Source of the DNA: Escherichia coli
Lineage (GTDB): Bacteria > Pseudomonadota > Gammaproteobacteria > Enterobacterales > Enterobacteriaceae
DNA: 64,000 nucleotides
Direction: 5' to 3' (one strand)
Assembly (NCBI RefSeq): GCF_044647545.1
Contig: NZ_CP172818.1
The position numbers were made by a program, and so were the translations under genes. The notes under the pieces are model-generated. The model was not told the origin of the DNA. It saw nothing but the letters and a program-made list of their open reading frames with translations, and did no database searches. Shown one piece after another: positions 4,707-64,000 of this stretch (position 1 is the stretch's first letter; every line of letters begins with the position of its first letter).

Positions 4707-5535
4707 ACGCACACTCAGTCGCATCGGTTTTTACTGCGGGCTGGCGCTGTTTCTCATCATCACGCTGTTTCCGTTTTTTGTGATGCTGATGACCTCGTTC
4801 AAGAGCGCAAAAGAGGCGATCTCGCTGCATCCTACGCTGCTGCCGCAGCAGTGGACGCTGGAGCATTATGTCGACATTTTTAACCCGATGATTTTCCCGT
4901 TTGTCGATTATTTCCGTAACAGCATGGTGGTGTCGGTAGTTTCATCCGTGATAGCAGTATTTCTCGGCATTCTCGGGGCTTACGCGCTTTCCCGCCTGCG
5001 CTTTAAAGGGCGAATGACCATCAACGCCAGCTTCTACACGGTGTACATGTTCTCCGGCATTTTGCTGGTGGTGCCGCTGTTCAAAATCATCACCGCGCTT
5101 GGCGTTTACGACACCGAGATGGCGCTGATCATCACCATGGTTACGCAAACCCTGCCTACCGCCGTGTTTATGCTGAAAAGCTACTTCGACACCATCCCCG
5201 ATGAAATCGAAGAAGCGGCGATGATGGATGGCCTCAACCGGCTGCAAATCATCTTCCGCATCACGGTACCGCTGGCGATGTCCGGGCTGATATCCGTATT
5301 CGTCTACTGCTTTATGGTGGCATGGAACGACTATCTGTTTGCGTCGATTTTCCTCTCCAGCGCCAGCAATTTCACCTTACCAGTCGGCCTGAACGCGCTG
5401 TTCAGTACGCCTGATTACATCTGGGGACGGATGATGGCGGCCTCGCTGGTGACCGCATTGCCGGTGGTGATTATGTATGCGCTTTCGGAGCGTTTTATTA
5501 AGAGTGGTTTGACCGCCGGTGGCGTGAAGGGCTAA
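4693..5535 (+). CDS. ycjP: ABC transporter permease (MalG-like)
   Basis: 280 aa multi-TM ORF with EAAxxDG motif (EEAAMMDGLNRLQIIFRITVP). Confidence 0.85.
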   Translation: MATNKRTLSRIGFYCGLALFLIITLFPFFVMLMTSFKSAKEAISLHPTLLPQQWTLEHYVDIFNPMIFPFVDYFRNSMVVSVVSSVIAVFLGILGAYALSRLRFKGRMTINASFYTVYMFSGILLVVPLFKIITALGVYDTEMALIITMVTQTLPTAVFMLKSYFDTIPDEIEEAAMMDGLNRLQIIFRITVPLAMSGLISVFVYCFMVAWNDYLFASIFLSSASNFTLPVGLNALFSTPDYIWGRMMAASLVTALPVVIMYALSERFIKSGLTAGGVKG

Positions 5536-7433: not shown

Positions 7434-8489
7434 GTGAAAAGTGCAATGACAAGCTCTCCGCTGCGAGTCGCGATCATAGGCGCGGGCCAGGTGGCGGATA
7501 AAGTTCATGCTTCGTACTACTGCACCCGCAACGATCTGGAACTGGTGGCTGTCTGTGACAGCCGCCTTTCCCAGGCGCAGGCGCTGGCAGAAAAATACGG
7601 GAATGCATCCGTGTGGGACGATCCGCAGGCCATGCTGCTGGCGGTGAAACCTGATGTGGTTAGCGTCTGCTCACCTAACCGTTTTCATTACGAACATACC
7701 CTGATGGCGCTGGAAGCGGGCTGCCATGTGATGTGCGAAAAACCGCCCGCCATGACGCCAGAACAAGCGCGGGAAATGTGCGATACCGCGCGCAAACAGG
7801 GCAAGGTGCTGGCCTACGACTTTCACCATCGTTTTGCACTCGATACGCAACAGCTGCGTGAACAGGTGACCAACGGCGTTTTGGGAGAGATTTACGTTAC
7901 CACCGCCCGCGCCCTGCGTCGCTGCGGTGTTCCCGGCTGGGGTGTCTTTACTAATAAAGAATTGCAGGGCGGCGGGCCGCTTATTGACATCGGCATTCAT
8001 ATGCTGGATGCGGCGATGTATGTACTGGGCTTTCCGGCGGTGAAAAGCGTGACCGCGCATAGCTTTCAAAAGATCGGAACGCAAAAGAGCTGCGGTCAAT
8101 TTGGCGAGTGGGACCCGGCAACCTACAGCGTCGAAGATTCGCTGTTTGGCACCATTGAATTTCATAACGGCGGCATTCTGTGGCTTGAGACCTCATTTGC
8201 ACTCAACATCCGCGAACAGTCGATTATGAACGTCAGCTTTTGTGGTGATAAAGCCGGGGCGACGCTGTTTCCAGCACATATCTACACCGATAACAACGGT
8301 GAGTTAATGACGCTGATGCAACGGGAAATGGCAGACGACAACCGTCATCTGCGCAGTATGGAAGCCTTTATCAACCACGTACAAGGTAAGCCCGTGATGA
8401 TAGCCGACGCCGAGCAGGGGTACATCATCCAGCAACTGGTGGCGGCGTTGTATCAATCCGCAGAAACAGGAACGCGTGTGGAATTATGA
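7434..8489 (+). CDS. ycjS: Gfo/Idh/MocA family NAD-dependent oxidoreductase
   Basis: 351 aa ORF starting at GTG; N-terminal Rossmann (VAIIGAGQVA); operon context. Confidence 0.85.
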   Translation: MKSAMTSSPLRVAIIGAGQVADKVHASYYCTRNDLELVAVCDSRLSQAQALAEKYGNASVWDDPQAMLLAVKPDVVSVCSPNRFHYEHTLMALEAGCHVMCEKPPAMTPEQAREMCDTARKQGKVLAYDFHHRFALDTQQLREQVTNGVLGEIYVTTARALRRCGVPGWGVFTNKELQGGGPLIDIGIHMLDAAMYVLGFPAVKSVTAHSFQKIGTQKSCGQFGEWDPATYSVEDSLFGTIEFHNGGILWLETSFALNIREQSIMNVSFCGDKAGATLFPAHIYTDNNGELMTLMQREMADDNRHLRSMEAFINHVQGKPVMIADAEQGYIIQQLVAALYQSAETGTRVEL

Positions 8490-10752
8490 CCAGGCCAGTA
8501 ACGTTAACGGAACCCCATTTCAGCCAGCATACCCTGAACAAGTATGCTTCGCTGATGGCGCAGGGGAACGGCTATCTTGGGCTTCGCGCCAGCCATGAAG
8601 AAGATTATACGCGCCAGACACGCGGTATGTATCTGGCGGGGCTTTATCATCGCGCGGGGAAAATGACATCAACGAACTGGTGAACCTGCCTGACGTCATA
8701 GGGATGGAGATTACCTTGAATGGTGAACTTTTTGCGCTATCCCGCGAAACGTGGCAGCGCGAGCTTGACTTCGCCAGTGGTGAATTACGTCGCAATGTCG
8801 TCTGGTCTTCAGCCAGCGGCGCACGTTATGCCATTGCCAGCCGTCGCTTTGTTTCGGCAGAACAACTGCCGCTGATGGCGCTGGAAATCAGCATTACGCC
8901 GCTGGACGCTGACGCGTCAGTGCTGATTTCAACAGGCATTGACGCCACGCAAACCAACCACGGACGACAACATCTCGACGAAACCCAGGTGCGGGTGTTT
9001 GGTCAGCATTTGATGCAGGGGATCTATACCACTCAGGATGGACGCAGTGATGTGGCCATCAGCTGTTGCTGCCAGGTGAGCGGTGACGTGCAGCAATGCT
9101 ATACCGCCAAAGAGCGCCGCTTGCTGCAACATACCAGTGCACAACTACCTGCGGGCAAAACGCTGACGCTGCAAAAACGGGTGTGGATCGACTGGCGGGA
9201 CGACAGACACGTCGCTTTAGACGAGTGGGGTAGTGCATCGCTTCGTCAGCTTGAAATGTGTGTACAGCAGAGTTACGACCAACTTCTTGCAGCATCCACA
9301 GAAAACTGGCGTCAATGGTGGCAGAAACGTCGTATCACGGTAAACGGTGGCGATGCGCACGATCAGCAAGCGTTAGATTATGCGCTTTATCACCTACGCA
9401 TCATGACGCCTGCTCACGACGAGCGCAGCAGTATTGCGGCAAAAGGTTTGACCGGGGAAGGCTACAAAGGCCACGTTTTCTGGGATACGGAAGTATTTTT
9501 ACTGCCGTTCCATCTGTTTAGCGAACCGACGATTGCCAGAAGTTTACTGCGTTATCGCTGGCACAACTTGCCAGGCGCGCAGGAGAAAGCGCGACGCAAC
9601 GGCTGGCAGGGCGCGCTATTTCCGTGGGAAAGCGCGCGCAGCGGCGAAGAAGAGACGCCGGAATTTGCCGCCATTAACATTCGCACCGGGCTGCGGCAAA
9701 AAGTGGCCTCGGCGCAGGCGGAACATCATCTGGTCGCCGATATCGCCTGGGCGGTTGTTCAATACTGGCAGACCACGGGGGATGAAAGTTTCATTGCTCA
9801 TGAAGGCATGGCGCTACTTCTGGAAACTGCAAAGTTCTGGATTAGCCGCACGGTGAGGGTTAACGACCGTCTGGAAATTCATGATGTTATTGGGCCAGAC
9901 GAATATACCGAACATGTCAATAATAACGCCTTCACCAGCTATATGGCGTATTACAACGTCCAGCAGGCGCTGAACATCGCTCGTCAATTTGGCTGTAGCG
10001 ACGATGCGTTTATCCATCGCGCCGAAATGTTCCTTAAAGAACTGCGGCTGCCAGAAATTCAGCCCGACCGCGTTTTGCCGCAGGATGATTCGTTTATGGC
10101 GAAACCAGCGATTAATCTGGCGAAATACAAAGCGGCGGCGGGGAAGCAAACCATTCTGCTGGATTATTCACGCGCAGAAGTGAACGAGATGCAGATCCTC
10201 AAACAAGCTGATGTGGTGATGCTCAATTACATGCTGCCGGAGCAGTACTCAGCGGCATCGTGTCTTGCCAATCTGCAATTTTATGAACCGCGCACCATTC
10301 ACGACTCTTCACTGAGTAAAGCGATCCACGGCATTGTTGCCGCACGCTGTGGCCTGTTGGCGCAAAGTTATCAGTTCTGGCGGGAGGGGACTGAAATCGA
10401 TCTTGGTGCTGATCCGCATAGCTGTGATGACGGTATCCACGCTGCCGCAACTGGCGCAATCTGGTTGGGGGCGATTCAGGGTTTTGCCGGGGCGAGCGTG
10501 CGCAACGGTGAATTACATCTCAATCCGGCGTTACCTGAGCAGTGGCAACAGTTGTCTTTCCCTCTGTTCTGGCAGGGCTGTGAATTACAGGTCACTCTTG
10601 ACGCGCAGCGCATTGCGATTCGGACTTCTGCGCCAGTTTCACTGCGTTTGAACGGTCAGCTTATTTCAGTCTCTGAAGAATCTGTTTTCTGTTTAGGGGA
10701 TTTTATTTTGCCCTTCAATGGGACCGCTACCACGCATCAGGAGGGTGAATGA
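8486..10752 (+). pseudogene. ycjT: kojibiose phosphorylase (GH65) with reading frame interrupted by a 1-nt frameshift near 8665-8680
   Basis: Two consecutive ORFs (8486-8683 and 8680-10752) together give a GH65-like protein of about 755 aa; frame changes inside the A-run ggggaaaatgac (restoring one A gives ...HRAGKNDINELVNLPDVIGMEITLNG...). Confidence 0.7.
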
Positions 10753-11421: not shown

Positions 11422-12504
11422 ATGGCTCAGCTTTCGTTACAACATATTCAAAAAATCTACGATAACCAGGTGCATGTGGTGAAGGACTTCAACCTGGAAA
11501 TTGCCGATAAAGAGTTCATTGTCTTTGTCGGTCCGTCAGGCTGCGGTAAATCGACTACGCTGCGCATGATTGCCGGGCTTGAGGAGATCAGCGGTGGCGA
11601 TCTGTTGATCGACGGCAAACGAATGAATGACGTTCCAGCCAAAGCGCGCAATATCGCGATGGTGTTCCAGAACTACGCGCTGTATCCGCATATGACGGTC
11701 TACGACAACATGGCGTTTGGCCTGAAGATGCAAAAAATCGCCAAAGAGGTGATTGATGAGCGGGTTAACTGGGCGGCGCAAATCCTCGGCCTGCGTGAGT
11801 ACCTGAAACGCAAGCCGGGCGCGCTTTCTGGCGGGCAACGCCAGCGTGTGGCGCTCGGACGGGCGATTGTGCGCGAAGCGGGCGTGTTTTTAATGGATGA
11901 ACCGCTCTCTAACCTTGATGCCAAGCTGCGCGTACAAATGCGCGCAGAGATCAGCAAGCTGCATCAGAAACTGAACACCACCATGATCTACGTGACCCAC
12001 GATCAGACCGAAGCGATGACCATGGCGACGCGGATTGTGATTATGAAGGATGGGATTGTTCAGCAGGTCGGTGCGCCGAAAACGGTTTATAACCAACCTG
12101 CGAATATGTTTGTTGCCGGATTTATTGGATCGCCTGCGATGAATTTTATTCGCGGCACGATCGATGGCGATAAATTCGTTACGGAAACGCTTAAATTAAC
12201 CATACCCGAAGAGAAATTAGCGGTTCTGAAAACACAGGAAAGTTTGCATAAGCCCATCGTGATGGGAATACGCCCGGAAGATATTCATCCGGACGCGCAA
12301 GAGGAAAATAACATTTCCGCCAAAATTAGCGTGGCAGAATTAACCGGTGCGGAATTTATGCTCTACACCACGGTTGGGGGGCACGAGTTAGTGGTCCGTG
12401 CTGGTGCGTTAAATGATTATCATGCAGGAGAAAATATCACTATTCATTTTGATATGACTAAATGTCATTTCTTTGATGCAGAAACGAAAATAGCAATTCG
12501 CTAA
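11422..12504 (+). CDS. ycjV: ABC transporter ATP-binding protein (MalK-like)
   Basis: 360 aa ORF with Walker A (GPSGCGKST), ABC signature (LSGGQRQRV) and Walker B (FLMDEPLSNLD). Confidence 0.85.
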   Translation: MAQLSLQHIQKIYDNQVHVVKDFNLEIADKEFIVFVGPSGCGKSTTLRMIAGLEEISGGDLLIDGKRMNDVPAKARNIAMVFQNYALYPHMTVYDNMAFGLKMQKIAKEVIDERVNWAAQILGLREYLKRKPGALSGGQRQRVALGRAIVREAGVFLMDEPLSNLDAKLRVQMRAEISKLHQKLNTTMIYVTHDQTEAMTMATRIVIMKDGIVQQVGAPKTVYNQPANMFVAGFIGSPAMNFIRGTIDGDKFVTETLKLTIPEEKLAVLKTQESLHKPIVMGIRPEDIHPDAQEENNISAKISVAELTGAEFMLYTTVGGHELVVRAGALNDYHAGENITIHFDMTKCHFFDAETKIAIR

Positions 12505-19469: not shown

Positions 19470-20435
19470 ATGAGAACCGTTAAGGTATTTGAGGAGGCCT
19501 GGCCCTTACATACCCCGTTTGTGATTGCCCGGGGAAGTCGCAGTGAAGCGCGCGTGGTGGTGGTTGAACTGGAAGAAGATGGCGTCAAAGGTACGGGCGA
19601 ATGTACGCCTTATCCGCGCTATGGCGAAAGTGATGCCTCGGTAATGGCGCAAATTATGAGCGTCGTGCCGCAATTAGAGAAAGGGCTGACACGGGAGGAG
19701 TTGCAAAAAATCCTCCCTGCCGGCGCAGCACGTAATGCGCTGGATTGTGCATTGTGGGATCTGGCGGCGCGAAAACAGCAGCAATCGCTGGCTGATTTGA
19801 TCGGCATAACGCTTCCCGAGACAGTCACCACGGCACAGACGATAGTCATCGGTACGCCTGATCAGATGGCCAATAGTGCATCAACACTCTGGCAGGCAGG
19901 CGCGAAATTACTGAAAGTGAAGCTGGATAACCATCTTATCAGTGAGCGGATGGTGGCAATTCGCACAGCTGTGCCCGATGCGACGCTGATCGTTGATGCA
20001 AATGAATCCTGGCGTGCAGAAGGGTTGGCGGCGCGTTGCCAGCTATTGGCAGATTTAGGCGTTGCGATGCTTGAACAACCGCTTTCTGCGCAGGACGATG
20101 CGGCGCTGGAGAATTTTATTCATCCGTTACCGATTTGTGCTGATGAAAGTTGTCATACTCGTAGCAATCTGAAGGCGCTGAAAGGGCGCTATGAGATGGT
20201 TAACATTAAGCTTGATAAAACCGGTGGTCTGACGGAAGCGCTGGCGCTGGCGACTGAAGCGCGTGCACAAGGTTTTCGTCTGATGCTGGGCTGCATGTTG
20301 TGTACCTCTCGGGCCATTAGCGCCGCTTTACCGCTGGTGCCGCAGGTCAGTTTCGCCGATCTTGACGGACCGACCTGGCTGGCGGTAGATGTGGAACCGG
20401 CGCTTCAGTTCACAACGGGCGAATTGCATCTTTAG
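19470..20435 (+). CDS. ycjG: L-Ala-D/L-Glu epimerase (enolase superfamily)
   Basis: ORF 19428-20435; likely ATG at 19470 (MRTVKVFEEAWPL...); enolase-superfamily features. Confidence 0.85.
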   Translation: MRTVKVFEEAWPLHTPFVIARGSRSEARVVVVELEEDGVKGTGECTPYPRYGESDASVMAQIMSVVPQLEKGLTREELQKILPAGAARNALDCALWDLAARKQQQSLADLIGITLPETVTTAQTIVIGTPDQMANSASTLWQAGAKLLKVKLDNHLISERMVAIRTAVPDATLIVDANESWRAEGLAARCQLLADLGVAMLEQPLSAQDDAALENFIHPLPICADESCHTRSNLKALKGRYEMVNIKLDKTGGLTEALALATEARAQGFRLMLGCMLCTSRAISAALPLVPQVSFADLDGPTWLAVDVEPALQFTTGELHL

Positions 20436-21138
20436 GATGCCAGCGCAGCAAGTTTGCCATCGCAAAGAGATATTTTTCGCTGGCTTCGTCGGAGGAGATG
20501 GGCGGAAACTCTGCGGTGATGCAATGCAGGTTGAGATCCGCACACCAACTGCCGAAAGAGCCAGGCGTTTCATAACCGACGCTGGTTACCAGTGGCAATT
20601 CAAACGCCTGGGCCAGCCATTCACCTAATTCGCTGTGTCTGGGGTCTTCAATACAGGCCAGTGGATCGTGGAATGAGACCACCCAGGCAGGTTGAATGCG
20701 GTGTATAAGCTGGCACAGCGCCTGAGTTTCAGGTTCGGAGCCAGGTTTGTCACCTGTCAGTAAAACGACATCACGTTCTTCAGCGGTGCTGTTCCAGCGA
20801 TAAACTGTTTCACCTTCCTTCCAGTTCGCTGCCGGAAAGTTTCGGTTTAAATCCACACCATTAGCATTGGCCCGTAACCCTAACTGGCAGCCGTCAGGAT
20901 TCACACACAGCACCACATGATGGCGGCGCAAAGACGGTGTCAAAGTCCGCAGAGCACAGGAGAGCGTGACGATCGAAGAGTTTTCATCACCGTGAGTGCC
21001 AGCCAGAATCAAACCACTTTCGTGACTGGCGGCTGGGGCCGGAAACCAGATCAAAGGCGCGCCCAATAATGAACGTCCGTAATGTTCTGTACCGGGCGGA
21101 AATGCGCCGCGTTCGGCGCGTGGGCGAGTTACGGTCAT
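20410..21138 (-). CDS. mpaA: murein peptide amidase A (gamma-D-Glu-Dap amidase, M14-like)
   Basis: ORF 20410-21198; likely start MTVTRPRAERG at 21138; zinc carboxypeptidase-like HGDEN motif. Confidence 0.85.
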   Translation of the reverse strand: MTVTRPRAERGAFPPGTEHYGRSLLGAPLIWFPAPAASHESGLILAGTHGDENSSIVTLSCALRTLTPSLRRHHVVLCVNPDGCQLGLRANANGVDLNRNFPAANWKEGETVYRWNSTAEERDVVLLTGDKPGSEPETQALCQLIHRIQPAWVVSFHDPLACIEDPRHSELGEWLAQAFELPLVTSVGYETPGSFGSWCADLNLHCITAEFPPISSDEASEKYLFAMANLLRWHPKDAIRPL

Positions 21139-21318
21139 GATCGTCTCTGGTTCAGGAAGTATTACAGGCAGTGTTGTGCAAATTTTGCGGATTATCAAAT
21201 CCTTTTCTTCAACGCTATGTTATCGATCTTTTCACTTTTTTGCCGGAAGTTGTTTGCATTTCTTTAAGGCGAAACAAATAATTACGCATCAATTTTAATG
21301 TCGGTTAGAGGGAAACTT

Positions 21319-22932
21319 ATGAAGCACTCTGTTTCAGTCACGTGTTGTGCGCTGTTGGTCAGCAGCATTTCTCTTTCGTATGCTGCTGAAGTTCCGAGCG
21401 GCACAGTACTGGCAGAGAAGCAGGAGCTGGTGCGCCACATTAAAGATGAGCCTGCGTCGCTGGATCCCGCTAAAGCCGTGGGCCTGCCAGAGATTCAGGT
21501 CATTCGCGATCTGTTTGAAGGACTGGTGAATCAGAACGAGAAAGGGGAGATTGTCCCCGGCGTTGCGACTCAGTGGAAAAGTAATGACAACCGTATCTGG
21601 ACATTTACCCTGCGCGATAACGCAAAATGGGCGGATGGCACTCCGGTAACGGCGCAAGATTTTGTCTACAGCTGGCAACGTCTGGTGGACCCAAAAACAT
21701 TGTCGCCATTTGCATGGTTTGCCGCGCTGGCGGGAATCAACAACGCACAGGCGATTATTGATGGTAAAGCCACGCCTGACCAGCTTGGCGTCACCGCAGT
21801 TGATGCCCATACTTTGAAAATCCAGCTTGATAAACCGTTGCCGTGGTTTGTGAATTTAACCGCTAACTTTGCCTTCTTCCCGGTGCAAAAAGCCAACGTA
21901 GAAAGCAGTAAAGAGTGGACGAAACCCGGAAATCTGATCGGCAATGGCGCTTATGTTCTTAAAGAGCGCGTAGTCAATGAAAAACTGGTCGTAGTGCCGA
22001 ATACCCATTATTGGGATAACGCCAAAACGGTACTGCAAAAAGTGACCTTCCTGCCAATTAATCAGGAATCCGCAGCCACTAAGCGTTACCTCGCGGGGGA
22101 TATTGATATCACTGAATCCTTCCCGAAAAATATGTATCAGAAGCTGTTGAAGGATATTCCGGGGCAGGTTTATACGCCGCCGCAGCTCGGGACCTATTAT
22201 TATGCGTTTAACACGCAAAAAGGGCCGACGGCAGATCAGCGCGTTCGCCTGGCATTAAGTATGACGATAGATCGCCGCCTGATGACCGAAAAAGTATTAG
22301 GGACGGGCGAAAAGCCAGCGTGGCATTTTACACCAGATGTTACCGCGGGATTTACGCCGGAACCTTCGCCGTTTGAACAAATGAGTCAGGAAGAACTGAA
22401 TGCGCAGGCAAAAACTTTGTTGAGCGCAGCTGGTTATGGTCCGCAAAAACCGCTGAAGCTGACGCTTTTGTATAACACTTCAGAAAACCATCAAAAAATT
22501 GCGATTGCTGTAGCATCAATGTGGAAAAAGAACCTTGGCGTAGATGTTAAATTGCAAAATCAGGAATGGAAAACCTATATCGATAGCCGTAACACCGGCA
22601 ATTTTGATGTTATCCGCGCCTCGTGGGTAGGGGATTATAATGAACCCTCCACTTTCCTGACATTATTAACGTCAACGCATTCCGGGAATATTTCACGCTT
22701 TAACAATCCGGCATATGACAAAGTTCTGGCCCAGGCATCGACGGAAAATACCGTTAAAGCGCGTAATGCCGATTACAACGCGGCAGAAAAAATCCTCATG
22801 GAGCAAGCACCGATTGCACCAATTTATCAATATACCAATGGACGATTAATCAAGCCGTGGCTGAAAGGTTATCCCATTAATAACCCTGAAGATGTGGCGT
22901 ACAGTCGGACTATGTATATTGTGAAGCATTGA
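21319..22932 (+). CDS. mppA: periplasmic murein tripeptide-binding protein
   Basis: ORF 21298-22932; likely ATG at 21319 (MKHSVSVTCC...); family 5 solute-binding protein with signal peptide. Confidence 0.9.
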   Translation: MKHSVSVTCCALLVSSISLSYAAEVPSGTVLAEKQELVRHIKDEPASLDPAKAVGLPEIQVIRDLFEGLVNQNEKGEIVPGVATQWKSNDNRIWTFTLRDNAKWADGTPVTAQDFVYSWQRLVDPKTLSPFAWFAALAGINNAQAIIDGKATPDQLGVTAVDAHTLKIQLDKPLPWFVNLTANFAFFPVQKANVESSKEWTKPGNLIGNGAYVLKERVVNEKLVVVPNTHYWDNAKTVLQKVTFLPINQESAATKRYLAGDIDITESFPKNMYQKLLKDIPGQVYTPPQLGTYYYAFNTQKGPTADQRVRLALSMTIDRRLMTEKVLGTGEKPAWHFTPDVTAGFTPEPSPFEQMSQEELNAQAKTLLSAAGYGPQKPLKLTLLYNTSENHQKIAIAVASMWKKNLGVDVKLQNQEWKTYIDSRNTGNFDVIRASWVGDYNEPSTFLTLLTSTHSGNISRFNNPAYDKVLAQASTENTVKARNADYNAAEKILMEQAPIAPIYQYTNGRLIKPWLKGYPINNPEDVAYSRTMYIVKH

Positions 22933-22982: not shown

Positions 22983-24014
22983 TTAGCGACCCTGGTCCGG
23001 CGGTGTAATGTTATCCATATACAGCGTCTGGCTGGGGAAGGCAAAGTCCGCACCGTGTGACTGTACAATATCGATAATCTTCAAATAAACGTCTTGCTGT
23101 GCAGCAAGCCATTCAGCCCATACCGTGGTTTTGGTAAAGCAATAAACCATAATATTCAATGAGGAGTCAGCAAACTGGTTGAAATAAACCAGTAAGGTTT
23201 GTCGCTGGTCGATGGCCGGGTGATTTTTCAGCATCTCACGTACGGCTTCGACAATAACGCCCACTTTTGCCGCATCCTCATAACGTAAACCAATGGTCGT
23301 GGTAATGCGCCGGTTGGTCATTCGTCCTGGGTTTTCTACGCTGATTGACGAAAACAACGAGTTCGGTACGTACAACGGACGATTATCAAAAGTCGTAATT
23401 TTGGTAATTCGCCAGCCAATTTCCGCTACTGTACCTTCGATATTTCTGTCCGGTGAACGGATCCAGTCGCCAATACTAAAAGGACGGTCGAAATAGAGCA
23501 TAATCCCGGAAAAGAAGTTACTCAAAATATCTTTACCGGCCATACCGACAGCCAGACCACCAATACCACCAAAGGTCAACAAGCCAGAAAGGCTCATGCC
23601 GAAATGTTCGCCATAAAGCAGAACAAGCACCACAATAATGGTGATTTTGATAATGCGCGACATGATCCGCGCACTGGTGATATCGCGACCTTTTTTAATC
23701 TGCTGTTTTTCAAACTGATTAATCAGCAGAAATAGCTTAATCGTCAGAATAACCGCAATCAGGGACGTACAGATAAAATCGATAACGCCTGGGGTGATAA
23801 ATTTGAGTTTATAGTTTTCTATAACATAGTTAATGATGCTACCAACAGCACTAATAATTATGGTGTAGATTAAAAATTGCACCGCATGGAATAAAAATCC
23901 TTTTCTTTTACGATTTCCACGGCGAAACCAAAAGCTCATCAGAATCAATGCTGCGCAGCTACCGAAAATAATGACCAGATTAAGCGCATTATTTGTAAAC
24001 AGTTCAGCGATCAT
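22983..24014 (-). CDS. ynaI: MscS-family mechanosensitive channel
   Basis: 343 aa ORF with N-terminal TM helices and MscS-like core. Confidence 0.85.
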
Positions 24015-24253
24015 TGTTTTATCAGGCTCCTCCAGATAATTGTCGTCATGCCGGAAACCCCTGGCGGGACTATTTTACCGCGACAATTCATTCAGATCAT
24101 CAATAGTCAGGGAAGGAAGTAGCAACTCTAACTAATCAATACGTTGATTGTAAATCCAGCTAAGAGGTGAGGTTTTCAGAGCAGACAACGGTGAAATGTC
24201 ATGGTATTGTTACGTTTAGGTAACAAGAAATTTGTCTGCACAAGGATTACATC

Positions 24254-24511
24254 ATGATTATGGCGAAACTGAAGTCAGCGAAAGGGAAGAAATTTCTCTT
24301 TGGTTTGTTGGCGGTTTTCATTATTGCGGCGTCGGTTGTGACTCGCGCGACCATCGGCGGCGTTATAGAACAGTACAATATTCCGCTGTCTGAGTGGACG
24401 ACATCAATGTATGTGATTCAGTCATCGATGATTTTTGTTTATAGCCTGGTCTTTACTGTGTTGCTGGCAATACCGTTGGGAATTTATTTTCTTGGCGGCG
24501 AAGAGCAGTAA
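24254..24511 (+). CDS. ynaJ: small inner-membrane protein (DUF2534)
   Basis: 85 aa ORF with two hydrophobic helices; conserved position upstream of uspE. Confidence 0.7.
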   Translation: MIMAKLKSAKGKKFLFGLLAVFIIAASVVTRATIGGVIEQYNIPLSEWTTSMYVIQSSMIFVYSLVFTVLLAIPLGIYFLGGEEQ

Positions 24512-37901: not shown

Positions 37902-38837
37902 TTATTTCACTTCAACCACATTCAGTCGTAACTCATCCAACTGATTTTCATCTTCTTCAGGCTGCCAACCCGCCGGTTGTAGAGGGATCTCTTCGCGATC
38001 AAACGCCAGATCACCCCCGTTAACCACTTCAGAACCGTGGGTAATGCCTTTGAAATCGAACAGGTTGGTATCGCACAGATGCGACGGCACCACATTCTGC
38101 ATCGCGCTGAACATCGTCTCGATACGCCCCGGATAACGTTTATCCCAGTCACGCAACATGTCAGCAATCACCTGACGTTGCAGGTTAGGCTGTGAACCGC
38201 ACAGGTTGCACGGAATAATCGGGAACGCTTTTGCATCGGCAAAGCGCTGAATATCTTTCTCGCGGCAGTAGGCCAGCGGACGAATAACGATATGTTTGCC
38301 ATCATCGCTCATCAGTTTCGGAGGCATACCTTTCATCTTGCCGCCGTAGAACATATTTAAGAACAACGTTTGCAGGATATCGTCACGATGGTGACCCAGC
38401 GCGATCTTCGTCGCTCCCAGTTCCGTTGCGGTACGGTAAAGAATTCCGCGACGAAGACGAGAACACAGTGAGCAAGTGGTTTTGCCCTCCGGAATCTTCT
38501 CTTTCACGATACCGTAAGTGTTCTCTTCCACAATCTTGTACTCAACGCCCAGTTTTTCAAGATACTCGGGCAGAACGTGTTCCGGGAAGCCCGGTTGTTT
38601 TTGATCGAGGTTGACAGCCACCAGCGAAAAATTGATTGGCGCGCTTTGCTGCAAATTGCGCAGAATCTCCAGCATGGTATAGCTGTCTTTACCCCCTGAG
38701 AGGCAAACCATGATGCGATCGCCTTCTTCAATCATATTGAAGTCAGCAATGGCTTCGCCCACATTACGACGCAGACGTTTTTGTAATTTGTTCAGGTTGT
38801 ATTGTTCTTTCTTACTAATTTCTTGATTTTCTTGCAT
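37902..38837 (-). CDS. ttcA: tRNA 2-thiocytidine synthase TtcA
   Basis: 311 aa ORF with PP-loop SGGKDS motif and paired CxxC motifs; its 5' end overlaps the prophage attachment repeat. Confidence 0.85.
38788..38830. repeat. prophage attachment-site direct repeat (attL copy)
   Basis: ttgttcaggttgtattgttctttcttactaatttcttgatttt, identical to 61887-61929. Confidence 0.75.
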
Positions 38838-38888: not shown

Positions 38889-40119
38889 CTACGATAACCG
38901 CGCATTCAACATGGCTATCTGTTCGTCGTTCATGTCATCAATCCACATACCGTAAATTTCATACACCATCTGCGCAGTTTCATGCCCCATTTGGCTGGCT
39001 ATAAATGCCGGGTTCGCTCCTGCCGTCAACAGCCAGCAGGCAAAAGTATGCCGCGTATGGTACGGATTACGGCGGCGAATACCAGCACGTTTTACTGCTG
39101 CATTCCACCTTGCCCCCAAACTGCTTACCGAGTAATAAGGTTTTTGTTTTCCGTTACACACCCTGGGCATGAAAACAAAATGCAGTTTTTGCTTTTCGGT
39201 TCTGCATACTGCCGATAATAAAAGGTGACGACTTTTGCGATGATGCCCGGTCAGTTTGTATTGCTCCTTCAGTGCTTCAAGAGCAGGCTGCAGTAGTGTT
39301 ACTGTTCGGATCCCGGCATTTGTTTTTGGGGGACCGAACATATCGAGCCCTCGTCAGGTTTCTTCTGACATTCACTATTCCCTTTTCGAGATCCACATCC
39401 TCCCACGCCAGAGCTGCCAGTTCCCCGTGACGAAGTCCTGAGTAAACGGCAAAGTTCCACAAGTTCTCGCTATCTCCTTTTTCACTTTCCATTAATGCAT
39501 TGAATTCTGTTTTAGATAACGGATCAGGCTTTATTCTGTTCGCTGTAATTTTTTTACTCCTTCAAATGGTTTGGTTGATATAAATCCGACTGATACGCAA
39601 AACGCAACAGCGAACAGAGCAAGGCAATATCGTATCAACTGTGCGCACGGTTCTTCCTTTTTTGTTGGATCTTGGATTATCCAGGTAAAGCGTTTCTCCA
39701 TGCAGCAGTTCATTCCGGTAGTTTAAGATATCGCTATAACGAATATGTGATATCGGGGTACTTTCACAAATTATTATTCTGAGTGTTTTTAATTGTGATT
39801 TCGTTTTCTTCATTGTGTTTGTTGTTAACTCTGTCTCTTTAATTTTTGTCCAGATATCACAAAGCTCTCCGAACGTTTTTATGACTCTCGTTGTCACCAT
39901 TTTTGCCCCAGTGCTGGACTGGGGAAAACGTCTTAAATACTCAAATTCACCGGAGTTTATTTCATGAACTATCAGCGCTCTTAAATTTCCGGCCTTTTTA
40001 ATATTACTGTTTGTAATCTCCCAGCCTTTTAATGTTTCCCGACATCGTTTTCCTCGAAACATGAACCAGATGCGAATGTATCTACCTCTAATCTCGACAC
40101 CTGTTGGTAATTTAGACAT
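38889..40119 (-). pseudogene. intR: prophage tyrosine integrase, reading frame broken by at least two frameshifts
   Basis: Three consecutive minus-strand ORF fragments (39562-40119, 39277-39492, 38889-39341) together resemble one tyrosine recombinase (MSKLPTGVEIRGRYIRIWF...; ...LRHGELAALAWEDVD...; ...RHTFACWLLTAGANPAFIASQMGH...EIYGMW). Confidence 0.75.
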
Positions 40120-54408: not shown

Positions 54409-54524
54409 TGGCGGGGCCATCTGTACGCGTGAATGAATGGTTCAGTGCTTATGCGATGGCGGGTGTGGCTTACAGCCGTGTTTCGACGTTCTCCGGGGAT
54501 TATCTCCGCGTAACTGACAACAAG

Positions 54525-55720
<1,196 letters not shown>

Positions 55721-61882: not shown

Positions 61883-61936
61883 TTACTTGTTCAGGTTGTA
61901 TTGTTCTTTCTTACTAATTTCTTGATTTTGCGACAT
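61883..61936 (-). pseudogene. ttcC: displaced N-terminal fragment of ttcA (17 codons)
   Basis: Minus-strand ATG at 61934-61936 encodes [17 protein letters not shown] then stop; parallels ttcA N-terminus [17 protein letters not shown]. Confidence 0.5.
61887..61929. repeat. prophage attachment-site direct repeat (attR copy)
   Basis: Identical 43-bp copy of 38788-38830. Confidence 0.75.
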
Positions 61937-62111
61937 TTAAAAGCGACTCAATTCGTTATATGGCATCAGAAGAGTATGCGTCATGCCGGAACGCCCAGCA
62001 TAAGAAATCTGATATAAAAACTGTGGCGTGTATGGTACGGATTAGAGGGGAAAATGTCAGCACATTTGCGAAATGAATCAAAAAGCCCGCAGCAATGTGC
62101 GGGCGTTAGTG

Positions 62112-62627
<516 letters not shown>

Positions 62628-62686
62628 TTAGATCAAAGGAGGAAGAATAAGCAGAAAAAGCCCGCCATAACAGCGGGCAGGAGGAT

Positions 62687-63820
62687 TTAGAACTGATAAA
62701 CCAGACCTAAAGCGACAATATCATCGGTAGAGATGCCGTTGGCAGCGTAGAAGCTGTCATCTTCATCCAACAGGTTGATTTTATAGTCAACGTAGGTGGA
62801 CATATTTTTGTTGAAATAGTAAGTCGCGCCAACATCGGCGTATTTAACCAGATCTTTATCATCAACACCTGCCGGGTTGTCTGCACCACCGGCAGCGTGA
62901 AGGTCACGGCCTTTAGACATCAGGAAAGAGACTGCCGGACGCAGACCAAAATCAAACTGGTACTGTGCAGTAACTTCAAAGTTCTGGGTTTTGTTCGCAA
63001 CTGCATAATCGCTGTCGCCAAACGGGGTCATGTTACGCGTTTCTGAATACATGGTTGCCAGGTAAATATTGTTAGCATCGTATTTTAGCCCAGCAGTCCA
63101 CGCGTCTGCTTTATCACCACCTGCCGCAGTATGGTTAACCTGGTCATTGGTGCGGTCAGATGAGGTGTATGCCGCACCAGCGCTAAAGCCCATGCCTAAA
63201 TCATATGTTGTGGAAAGACCCCAGCCGTCACCGTTTTCATGGCGAACATCACGTCCGTTGTTGGTGCCTTCCTGACCATTACTGGCACCTTCGTTGTTAC
63301 CTTGATACTGCACCGCGAAGTTCAGACCATTTACCAGACCGAAGAAATCAGTATTACGATAAGTCGCGACGCCGTTGGCACGACCAGTCATAAAGTTGTC
63401 TGCATTGGTATAAGAGTCACCGCCAAATTCAGGCAGCATATCGGTCCAGCCTTCGATGTCGTACATTACGCCATAATTACGTCCGTAATCGAAAGAACCG
63501 TAATCTGCAAATTTCAGTCCGGCAAATGCCAGACGGGTCCATGACTGGTTTGTTGAAGATTCAGTGTTGTTTGCCTGAATATTGTATTCCCATTGACCGT
63601 AGCCAGTGAGTTGATCGTTAATTTGGGTTTCGCCTTTAAAACCCAGACGCGCATAGCTCTGGTCGCCATCTTTCGCTGAATTATCAGAAAAATAATGCAG
63701 GCCATCAACTTTGCCATACAGATCCAATTTGTTGCCGTCTTTATTATAAACTTCGGCTGCATGTGCAGCACCTGCGGCGAGCAGGGCAGGAATTAAAAGT
63801 GCCAGTACTTTGCTTTTCAT
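62687..63820 (-). CDS. ompN: outer membrane porin OmpN (OmpC/OmpF family)
   Basis: 377 aa ORF with signal peptide ([21 protein letters not shown]) and C-terminal ...LGLVYQF. Confidence 0.85.
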
Positions 63821-64000
63821 TGAATAAATCCTTTAGTTATTTTATTTGCCTTTTATCCCCATTTCGGGGAGTGAAAACATCCTAAAGGAGAAGTTCAGTT
63901 AGCCGATAAATATCATTTGTTACGCCTTAAGTAAAACCTTAATCAAATAATTCTACGGAAATGATAATAAGTTTGGTGAATATATTGTTGGCGACATATA

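Follow-up and report, generated by a model that had tools for sequence, protein, structure and literature searches.

The window, by which we mean the whole 64,000-nucleotide stretch of Escherichia coli DNA analysed here, is a natural chromosome segment of an ST648-type (phylogroup F) strain, a label given by similarity to complete genomes and not by MLST. It differs from K-12 at three sites, and these markers very probably have two origins, with the compact mpaA-mppA junction most probably produced by loss of a gene cassette through flanking repeats. The three K-12 markers are of unequal weight. The IS5F copy and the ycjV lesion of K-12 are rare, and the compact junction is itself rare in E. 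coli. At mpaA-mppA the unusual lineage is that of the window, not that of K-12.

Strain identity and gene map

The reference collection consisted of 5,426 complete E. coli genomes. ST648-type strains were the best matches to the window in this collection (99.9%), and identity above 99% was reached in only 82 genomes. Alignment of positions 1-38830 to strain WP4-S18-ESBL-09 (NZ_AP022098.1) gave 99.977% identity over 38,830 bp, with one substitution and five small deletions. Positions 61887-64000 were 100% identical to the same chromosome over 2,114 bp. None of the 5,426 complete genomes matched the window exactly; the best backbone match was 99.9% and the best prophage match 98.3%. The compact junction is also present in a record named "strain ST648" (NZ_CP008697.1). 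ST648-type chromosomes resemble the window in the compact mpaA-mppA junction, the intact ycjV, and a ynaI-ynaJ region without IS5.

The corresponding region of K-12 MG1655, ycjM-ttcA-Rac (NC_000913.3, 1,370,000-1,437,000), shares the gene order of the window from ycjM to ompN. It differs in that the window has neither ymjC-ymjD-ycjY-pgrR nor IS5F, and its ycjV is whole. BLAST comparison of the window with K-12 gave collinear blocks of 95.0%, 97.0%, 98.6%, 98.2%, and 99.6% identity. The backbone is 1.4-5% divergent from MG1655 rather than nearly identical to it. Exactly two segments were found in K-12 only, one of 2.41 kb between mpaA and mppA and the other the 1,195-bp IS5F between ynaI and ynaJ. 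A preliminary description, made from the sequence alone, had suggested a related non-reference strain with a Rac-type prophage and had proposed alignment of the whole window to K-12 and B as the check. The alignment agreed with it: backbone identity to K-12 is 95.0-98.6%, both insertions are missing from the window, and its ycjV is without the frameshift. A Rac prophage is indeed present at ttcA, and the backbone is nearly identical to that of an ST648-type genome. Strain B is represented by BL21(DE3), in which only half of the junction query was matched, in two places, and which has the K-12-type ycjY-pgrR cassette at 99.9%. The window is thus neither K-12 nor B, because it is closest to ST648-type genomes and BL21(DE3) has the cassette.

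The features of the backbone that are discussed below are as follows.

11422-12504, + strand: ycjV, 360-aa ABC transporter ATPase with an unbroken ORF and ABC_tran, OB_MalK, and TOBE domains
20410-21138, - strand: mpaA, murein tripeptide amidase (Peptidase_M14), intact
21139-21318: mpaA-mppA intergenic region, 180 bp, divergent and compact, with no ycjY-pgrR cassette
21232-21261, + strand: 30-bp motif, single copy, TCACTTTTTTGCCGGAAGTTGTTTGCATTT
21253-21282, + strand: predicted sigma-70 promoter of mppA, with -35 TTTGCA, an 18-nt spacer, and -10 AATAAT; consensus match only
21319-22932, + strand: mppA, murein tripeptide periplasmic binding protein (SBP_bac_5), intact
22983-24014, - strand: ynaI
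24015-24253: ynaI-ynaJ intergenic region, 239 bp, uninterrupted
24254-24511, + strand: ynaJ

The preliminary description had put the mpaA and mppA start codons about 180 bp apart and the ynaI-ynaJ gap at about 240 bp; the exact figures are 180 bp (21139-21318) and 239 bp (24015-24253). The mppA ATG at 21319 is the RefSeq start in related genomes, and the mpaA start is likewise concordant with RefSeq. An Rfam scan of the whole window at gathering thresholds found no known RNA in either intergenic region; the only matches, all elsewhere in the window, were RalA, IS009, FnrS, and McaS.

The practical value lies in provenance: genomes of ST648/phylogroup F, and not K-12, are the proper reference for annotating the window. 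Its differences from K-12 are routine strain polymorphism in well-known genes, and they raise no new biological question. One of the three "K-12 extras" is a near-universal E. coli cassette that is missing from the lineage of the window.

Two markers apparently confined to the K-12 lineage

In K-12, ycjV carries a 1-bp deletion, with a run of five G residues where the window has six (12376-12381). The MG1655 record gives ycjV and ymjB as pseudogenes, in line with the preliminary description of ycjV, and the 360 codons reported for the whole gene in the window are borne out by the ORF and its domains. The exact frameshift allele of K-12 was found in 370 of the 5,426 genomes, and about 4,459 genomes have the extra G. 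The counterpart of ycjV in the ST648-type genome carries the RefSeq label "ABC transporter ATP-binding protein".

The preliminary description also had an IS5 copy at the second site, and the MG1655 record indeed has IS5F between ynaI and ynaJ. This element is 1,195 bp long with a CTAA target duplication. The window has a single CTAA at 24128-24131, which is the target duplicated by IS5F in K-12, and no insertion. In 5,055 of the 5,426 complete genomes nothing interrupts the ynaI-ynaJ region. The two K-12 features, IS5 at this site and the frameshift in ycjV, are each limited to about 370 genomes. Those listed as examples are K-12 laboratory derivatives, and the group appears to be the K-12 lineage. 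The IS5F copy and the 1-bp frameshift are best explained as late mutations, and at both sites the window has the species-typical state.

The compact mpaA-mppA junction and the missing cassette

The start codons of mpaA and mppA are 180 bp apart in the window versus 2.63 kb in K-12, and the extra segment of K-12 measures about 2.41 kb (locus L001, 20725-23135). The preliminary description had placed ycjY, ymjC, and a LysR regulator here, and NC_000913.3 does contain ymjC, ymjD, ycjY, and pgrR. K-12 is not unusual in having this cassette, since 5,218-5,244 of the 5,426 complete genomes (about 96%) have it as well. The compact junction was found in 173/5,426 genomes with a 901-bp query and in 162/5,426 with a query spanning the junction.

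The cassette encodes an SDR oxidoreductase, one or two alpha/beta hydrolases including ycjY, and the LysR regulator pgrR. Its content varies among strains. O55:H7 has the SDR gene, a hydrolase gene, ycjY, and pgrR; Nissle has the SDR gene, ycjY, and pgrR; and in K-12 and 042 the SDR gene is cut down to a remnant (ymjC/ymjD) beside ycjY and pgrR. These three forms are a decay series. In Nissle 1917 the adjacent mpaA (locus L088, 4131-4859) is a RefSeq pseudogene with an internal stop.

The two ends of the K-12 cassette carry direct copies of a motif of about 30 bp, TCACTTTTTTG(CC/AT)GGAAGTTGTTTGCATTT. Two copies surround the cassette in K-12, Nissle 1917, 042, O55:H7, and Escherichia sp. E1V33. 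The compact genomes have a single copy, as do the examined outgroups in which the motif is present, and it is single-copy in Escherichia and Citrobacter with the ancestral arrangement. Repeats that flank the segment in carriers, with one copy at the empty site, are what a precise repeat-mediated deletion would leave.

The ancestral state of the junction was examined by a scan with one genome per species, in which 80 MpaA-encoding loci were recovered. A divergent mppA/mpaA pair with a gap of about 180-200 bp was found in E. albertii, E. whittamii, Escherichia sp. MOD1-EC7003, and two divergent representatives named "E. coli". The same pair occurs in Citrobacter, Enterobacter, Kluyvera, Raoultella, and most other loci that have both genes. 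The only species in the scan with pgrR-ycjY was Escherichia sp. E1V33. As the norm across the other Enterobacteriaceae that were scanned, the compact arrangement represents the ancestral state among enterobacteria. The ancestral pair, ycjG-mpaA followed by a short intergenic region and then divergent mppA, looks like that of the window; the difference is that the arrangement in the window is secondary if the deletion model is right. Two Salmonella enterica genomes, of subsp. arizonae and diarizonae, have a different insert of 3 kb at the same site (L029, 2847-6001; L030). It is an operon of three genes with CDtoxinA, Exo_endo_phos, and CDtoxinA domains, i.e. cdtA-cdtB-cdtC of the cytolethal distending toxin. 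Flanking direct repeats were looked for around this insert and none were found.

Loss of the cassette or a site never filled

We favour a precise repeat-mediated deletion as the likelier source of the junction in the window lineage. The lineage would have lost the cassette by recombination or slippage between the two repeats of about 30 bp in the mppA promoter region. Such a loss would exactly restore the ancestral divergent layout of mpaA and mppA. A precise deletion and a never-occupied site give an identical sequence, so the junction sequence alone cannot decide. The sequence of the repeat was also tried as a discriminator between deletion and ancestral absence and failed, as the copy in the window (GCC ... 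GCATTT) fits both: it equals the copy of the outgroup MOD1-EC7003 and also the hybrid that the left and right copies of a cassette-bearing B2-type allele would form.

Strain LP5-1 is more informative. It has the compact junction, its single repeat carries the signature of the right copy (GAT), and in both flank trees it groups with the cassette-bearing K-12, O55, and 042. Precise repeat-mediated loss of the cassette does occur. These trees are based on 0.8-1.5 kb of a species that recombines, and the flank and cassette distances were computed with pairwise gap deletion. Divergence of the cassette among phylogroups is 0.5-1.7%, similar to that of the flanks, and the cassette is old in E. coli because the two run in parallel. 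The mpaA flank of the window nests inside E. coli, its distance being 2.0% to Nissle, 3.7% to K-12, and 4.5% to the outgroup MOD1. The flank and cassette distances lean toward descent of the empty-site lineage from a carrier; on this point the junction of the window itself is uninformative.

The strongest alternative is that the site has stayed empty since ancestral times and that phylogroup F never received the cassette, which later entered other lineages of the species and spread by recombination. We consider this rather unlikely, but it is a real rival with several observations in its favour. Outside E. coli the compact form prevails, also in the nearest sampled outgroup MOD1-EC7003, whose motif is identical to that of the window. 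On the mpaA flank, the compact E. coli genomes apart from LP5-1 group close to the window. The cassette also moves laterally. In Escherichia sp. E1V33 (locus L010, 3431-5906) it is 2.2-2.4% from that of E. coli while the mpaA and mppA flanks are 9-14% divergent, the block of low divergence starts at the left repeat, and the cassette is of the truncated K-12/042 type. This indicates that the E1V33 cassette came by lateral transfer between Escherichia species at the same site. The B2 and A/D/E cassettes may likewise be separate gains. Against a site that was never filled, the parallel divergence of cassette and flanks suggests long vertical residence, and the documented loss in LP5-1 provides a route to the compact form. 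Moreover, the mpaA flank of the window lies closer to the cassette-bearing Nissle (2.0%) than Nissle does to K-12 (2.9%).

A Rac prophage of the K-12 type at ttcA

The right part of the window carries a cryptic Rac prophage with a copy of IS5.

38788-61929: Rac cryptic prophage in ttcA, about 23 kb, with a 43-bp duplication at 38788-38830 and 61887-61929
54523-55720, - strand: IS5 copy of the IS5Y type in lomR, placed exactly as in K-12 Rac

The prophage is integrated at the 5' end of ttcA with the att duplication, and attL inside ttcA is also described for Rac in PMC4632033. Its gene content is that of Rac: xisR, ralR/RalA, recET, kilR, sieB, racR, ydaSTUV, trkG, lomR::IS5Y, stfR, and pinR. 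It is collinear with K-12 Rac throughout, with long stretches of 0 mismatches, and for many of its proteins the identity to K-12 is 100%. The exceptions are recE, with a divergent patch that is 14 aa longer, stfR (95% identical), and tfaR (90%). At the nucleotide level the divergent patches lie in intR (39.2-39.6 kb), recE (42.5-42.8 kb), at 50.0-50.5 and 54-56.5 kb, and in stfR/tfaR (58.5-60 kb). An apparent "divergent IS5", 91% identical to IS5F, proved to be the IS5Y variant found at the same site in K-12 Rac. The integrase is not intact: K-12 IntR can be aligned only by switching between two reading frames, and the gene (38889-40119) is broken up into ORF fragments by frameshifts. The neighbouring xisR is 100% identical to that of K-12. 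With its integrase broken, the prophage is probably locked in place.

A Rac-type integrase adjoins ttcA in 1,835 genomes, and at least 80% of the window prophage is covered in only 353 of the 5,426, the best-ranked matches being K-12 derivatives (98.3%). The ST648-type relatives differ from the window at this site. WP4-S18-ESBL-09 has ttcA without a prophage, and KN13-4 has a full-length Rac-like phage of about 46 kb at ttcA in place of the degraded form. A degraded Rac of the K-12 kind in a backbone of the phylogroup F type is unusual. A speculative reading, to which we give limited credence, is that mpaA-mppA is a recurrent exchange site and that, separately, the window lineage acquired an already degraded K-12-type Rac very recently. 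Its first part draws on the gain in E1V33, the precise loss in LP5-1 (and perhaps in phylogroup F), and cdtABC in Salmonella IIIa/IIIb. If its second part is true, even a cryptic prophage remains able to pass from one E. coli lineage to a distant one.

Regulation of the murein-peptide recycling genes

Strains such as this one have no PgrR regulator and no YcjY hydrolase in the murein-peptide recycling locus. In K-12, the regulon of PgrR (YcjZ) is tabulated in PMC5934670, citing Shimada et al. 2013 (Genes Cells 18:123), as ycjG, ycjXF-tyrR, and the ycjY-ymjDC-mpaA operon. The window contains every one of the targets ycjG, ycjX, ycjF, tyrR, and mpaA but has neither pgrR nor the ycjY promoter from which mpaA is driven in K-12. 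Because these two elements are missing, mpaA is presumably transcribed from its own promoter in the proximal 92 bp and not as the last gene of a ycjY operon. The -35 element of the predicted mppA promoter sits within the 30-bp motif, and it belongs to the only sigma-70-like promoter predicted for this gene. Expression of mppA would start from this promoter, which overlaps the motif. PgrR control of the murein-peptide recycling genes is thus probably absent here, and their regulation is likely to differ from that of K-12; these consequences are drawn from K-12 literature and one consensus promoter match. They call for caution when the regulation of mpaA, mppA, and ycjG in K-12 is carried over to ExPEC lineages.

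Private deletions and assembly quality

The other compact-junction genomes that were examined have intergenic regions of 182 bp (mpaA-mppA) and 243 bp (ynaI-ynaJ). The window has private deletions of 2 bp at 21230/31 and 4 bp at 24126/27, and further small ones at 8659 and 13493. Two of the private deletions are complex, combining a deletion with a base change, and each intergenic region contains one of them. The 4-bp deletion borders the CTAA target (24128-24131) on the left. None of the 5,426 complete genomes shares the private small deletions, and they may be assembly errors.

A more far-reaching error would be a partial assembly artefact, with the junction collapsed over the 30-bp repeat or K-12 Rac contamination joined into an ST648 assembly. 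The small deletions (1-4 bp) that set the window apart from all 5,426 complete genomes point in this direction and would fit an assembly of lower quality, as do the clustered patches of mismatches and indels in intR, recE, and stfR and the occurrence of this form of Rac otherwise in 353 genomes, with K-12 derivatives ranked best. Such an artefact is nevertheless very improbable. The same compact junction is present in 162-173 independent complete genomes, and the prophage sits exactly at the ttcA att site with its 43-bp duplication. The prophage is also not simple K-12 contamination, because several patches differ from those of K-12.

Derivation of the window from a K-12 or B laboratory strain, with loss of the cassette and IS5 and repair of ycjV, has a negligible chance of being right: Rac does have K-12 architecture and many proteins 100% identical to those of K-12, but this reading is refuted by the 1.4-5% divergence of the backbone from K-12 on both sides of the prophage and by its 99.98-100% identity to ST648-type genomes.

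Two small differences from the ST648-type relative fall in the ycj operon. The kojibiose phosphorylase gene ycjT (8486-10752) has a 1-bp deletion in an A-run at 8659, which causes a frameshift after codon 58 and a stop at codon 66; ycjT is whole in this relative and in K-12. Unless the deletion is a sequencing error, the ycj operon would be broken at a different gene from that in K-12. The sole substitution relative to the ST648-type genome is at 12487 in ycjV. It replaces Glu with Lys at a position five residues before the C-terminus, which reads ...DAETKIAIR in the window and ...DAETEIAIR in the ST648-type genome.
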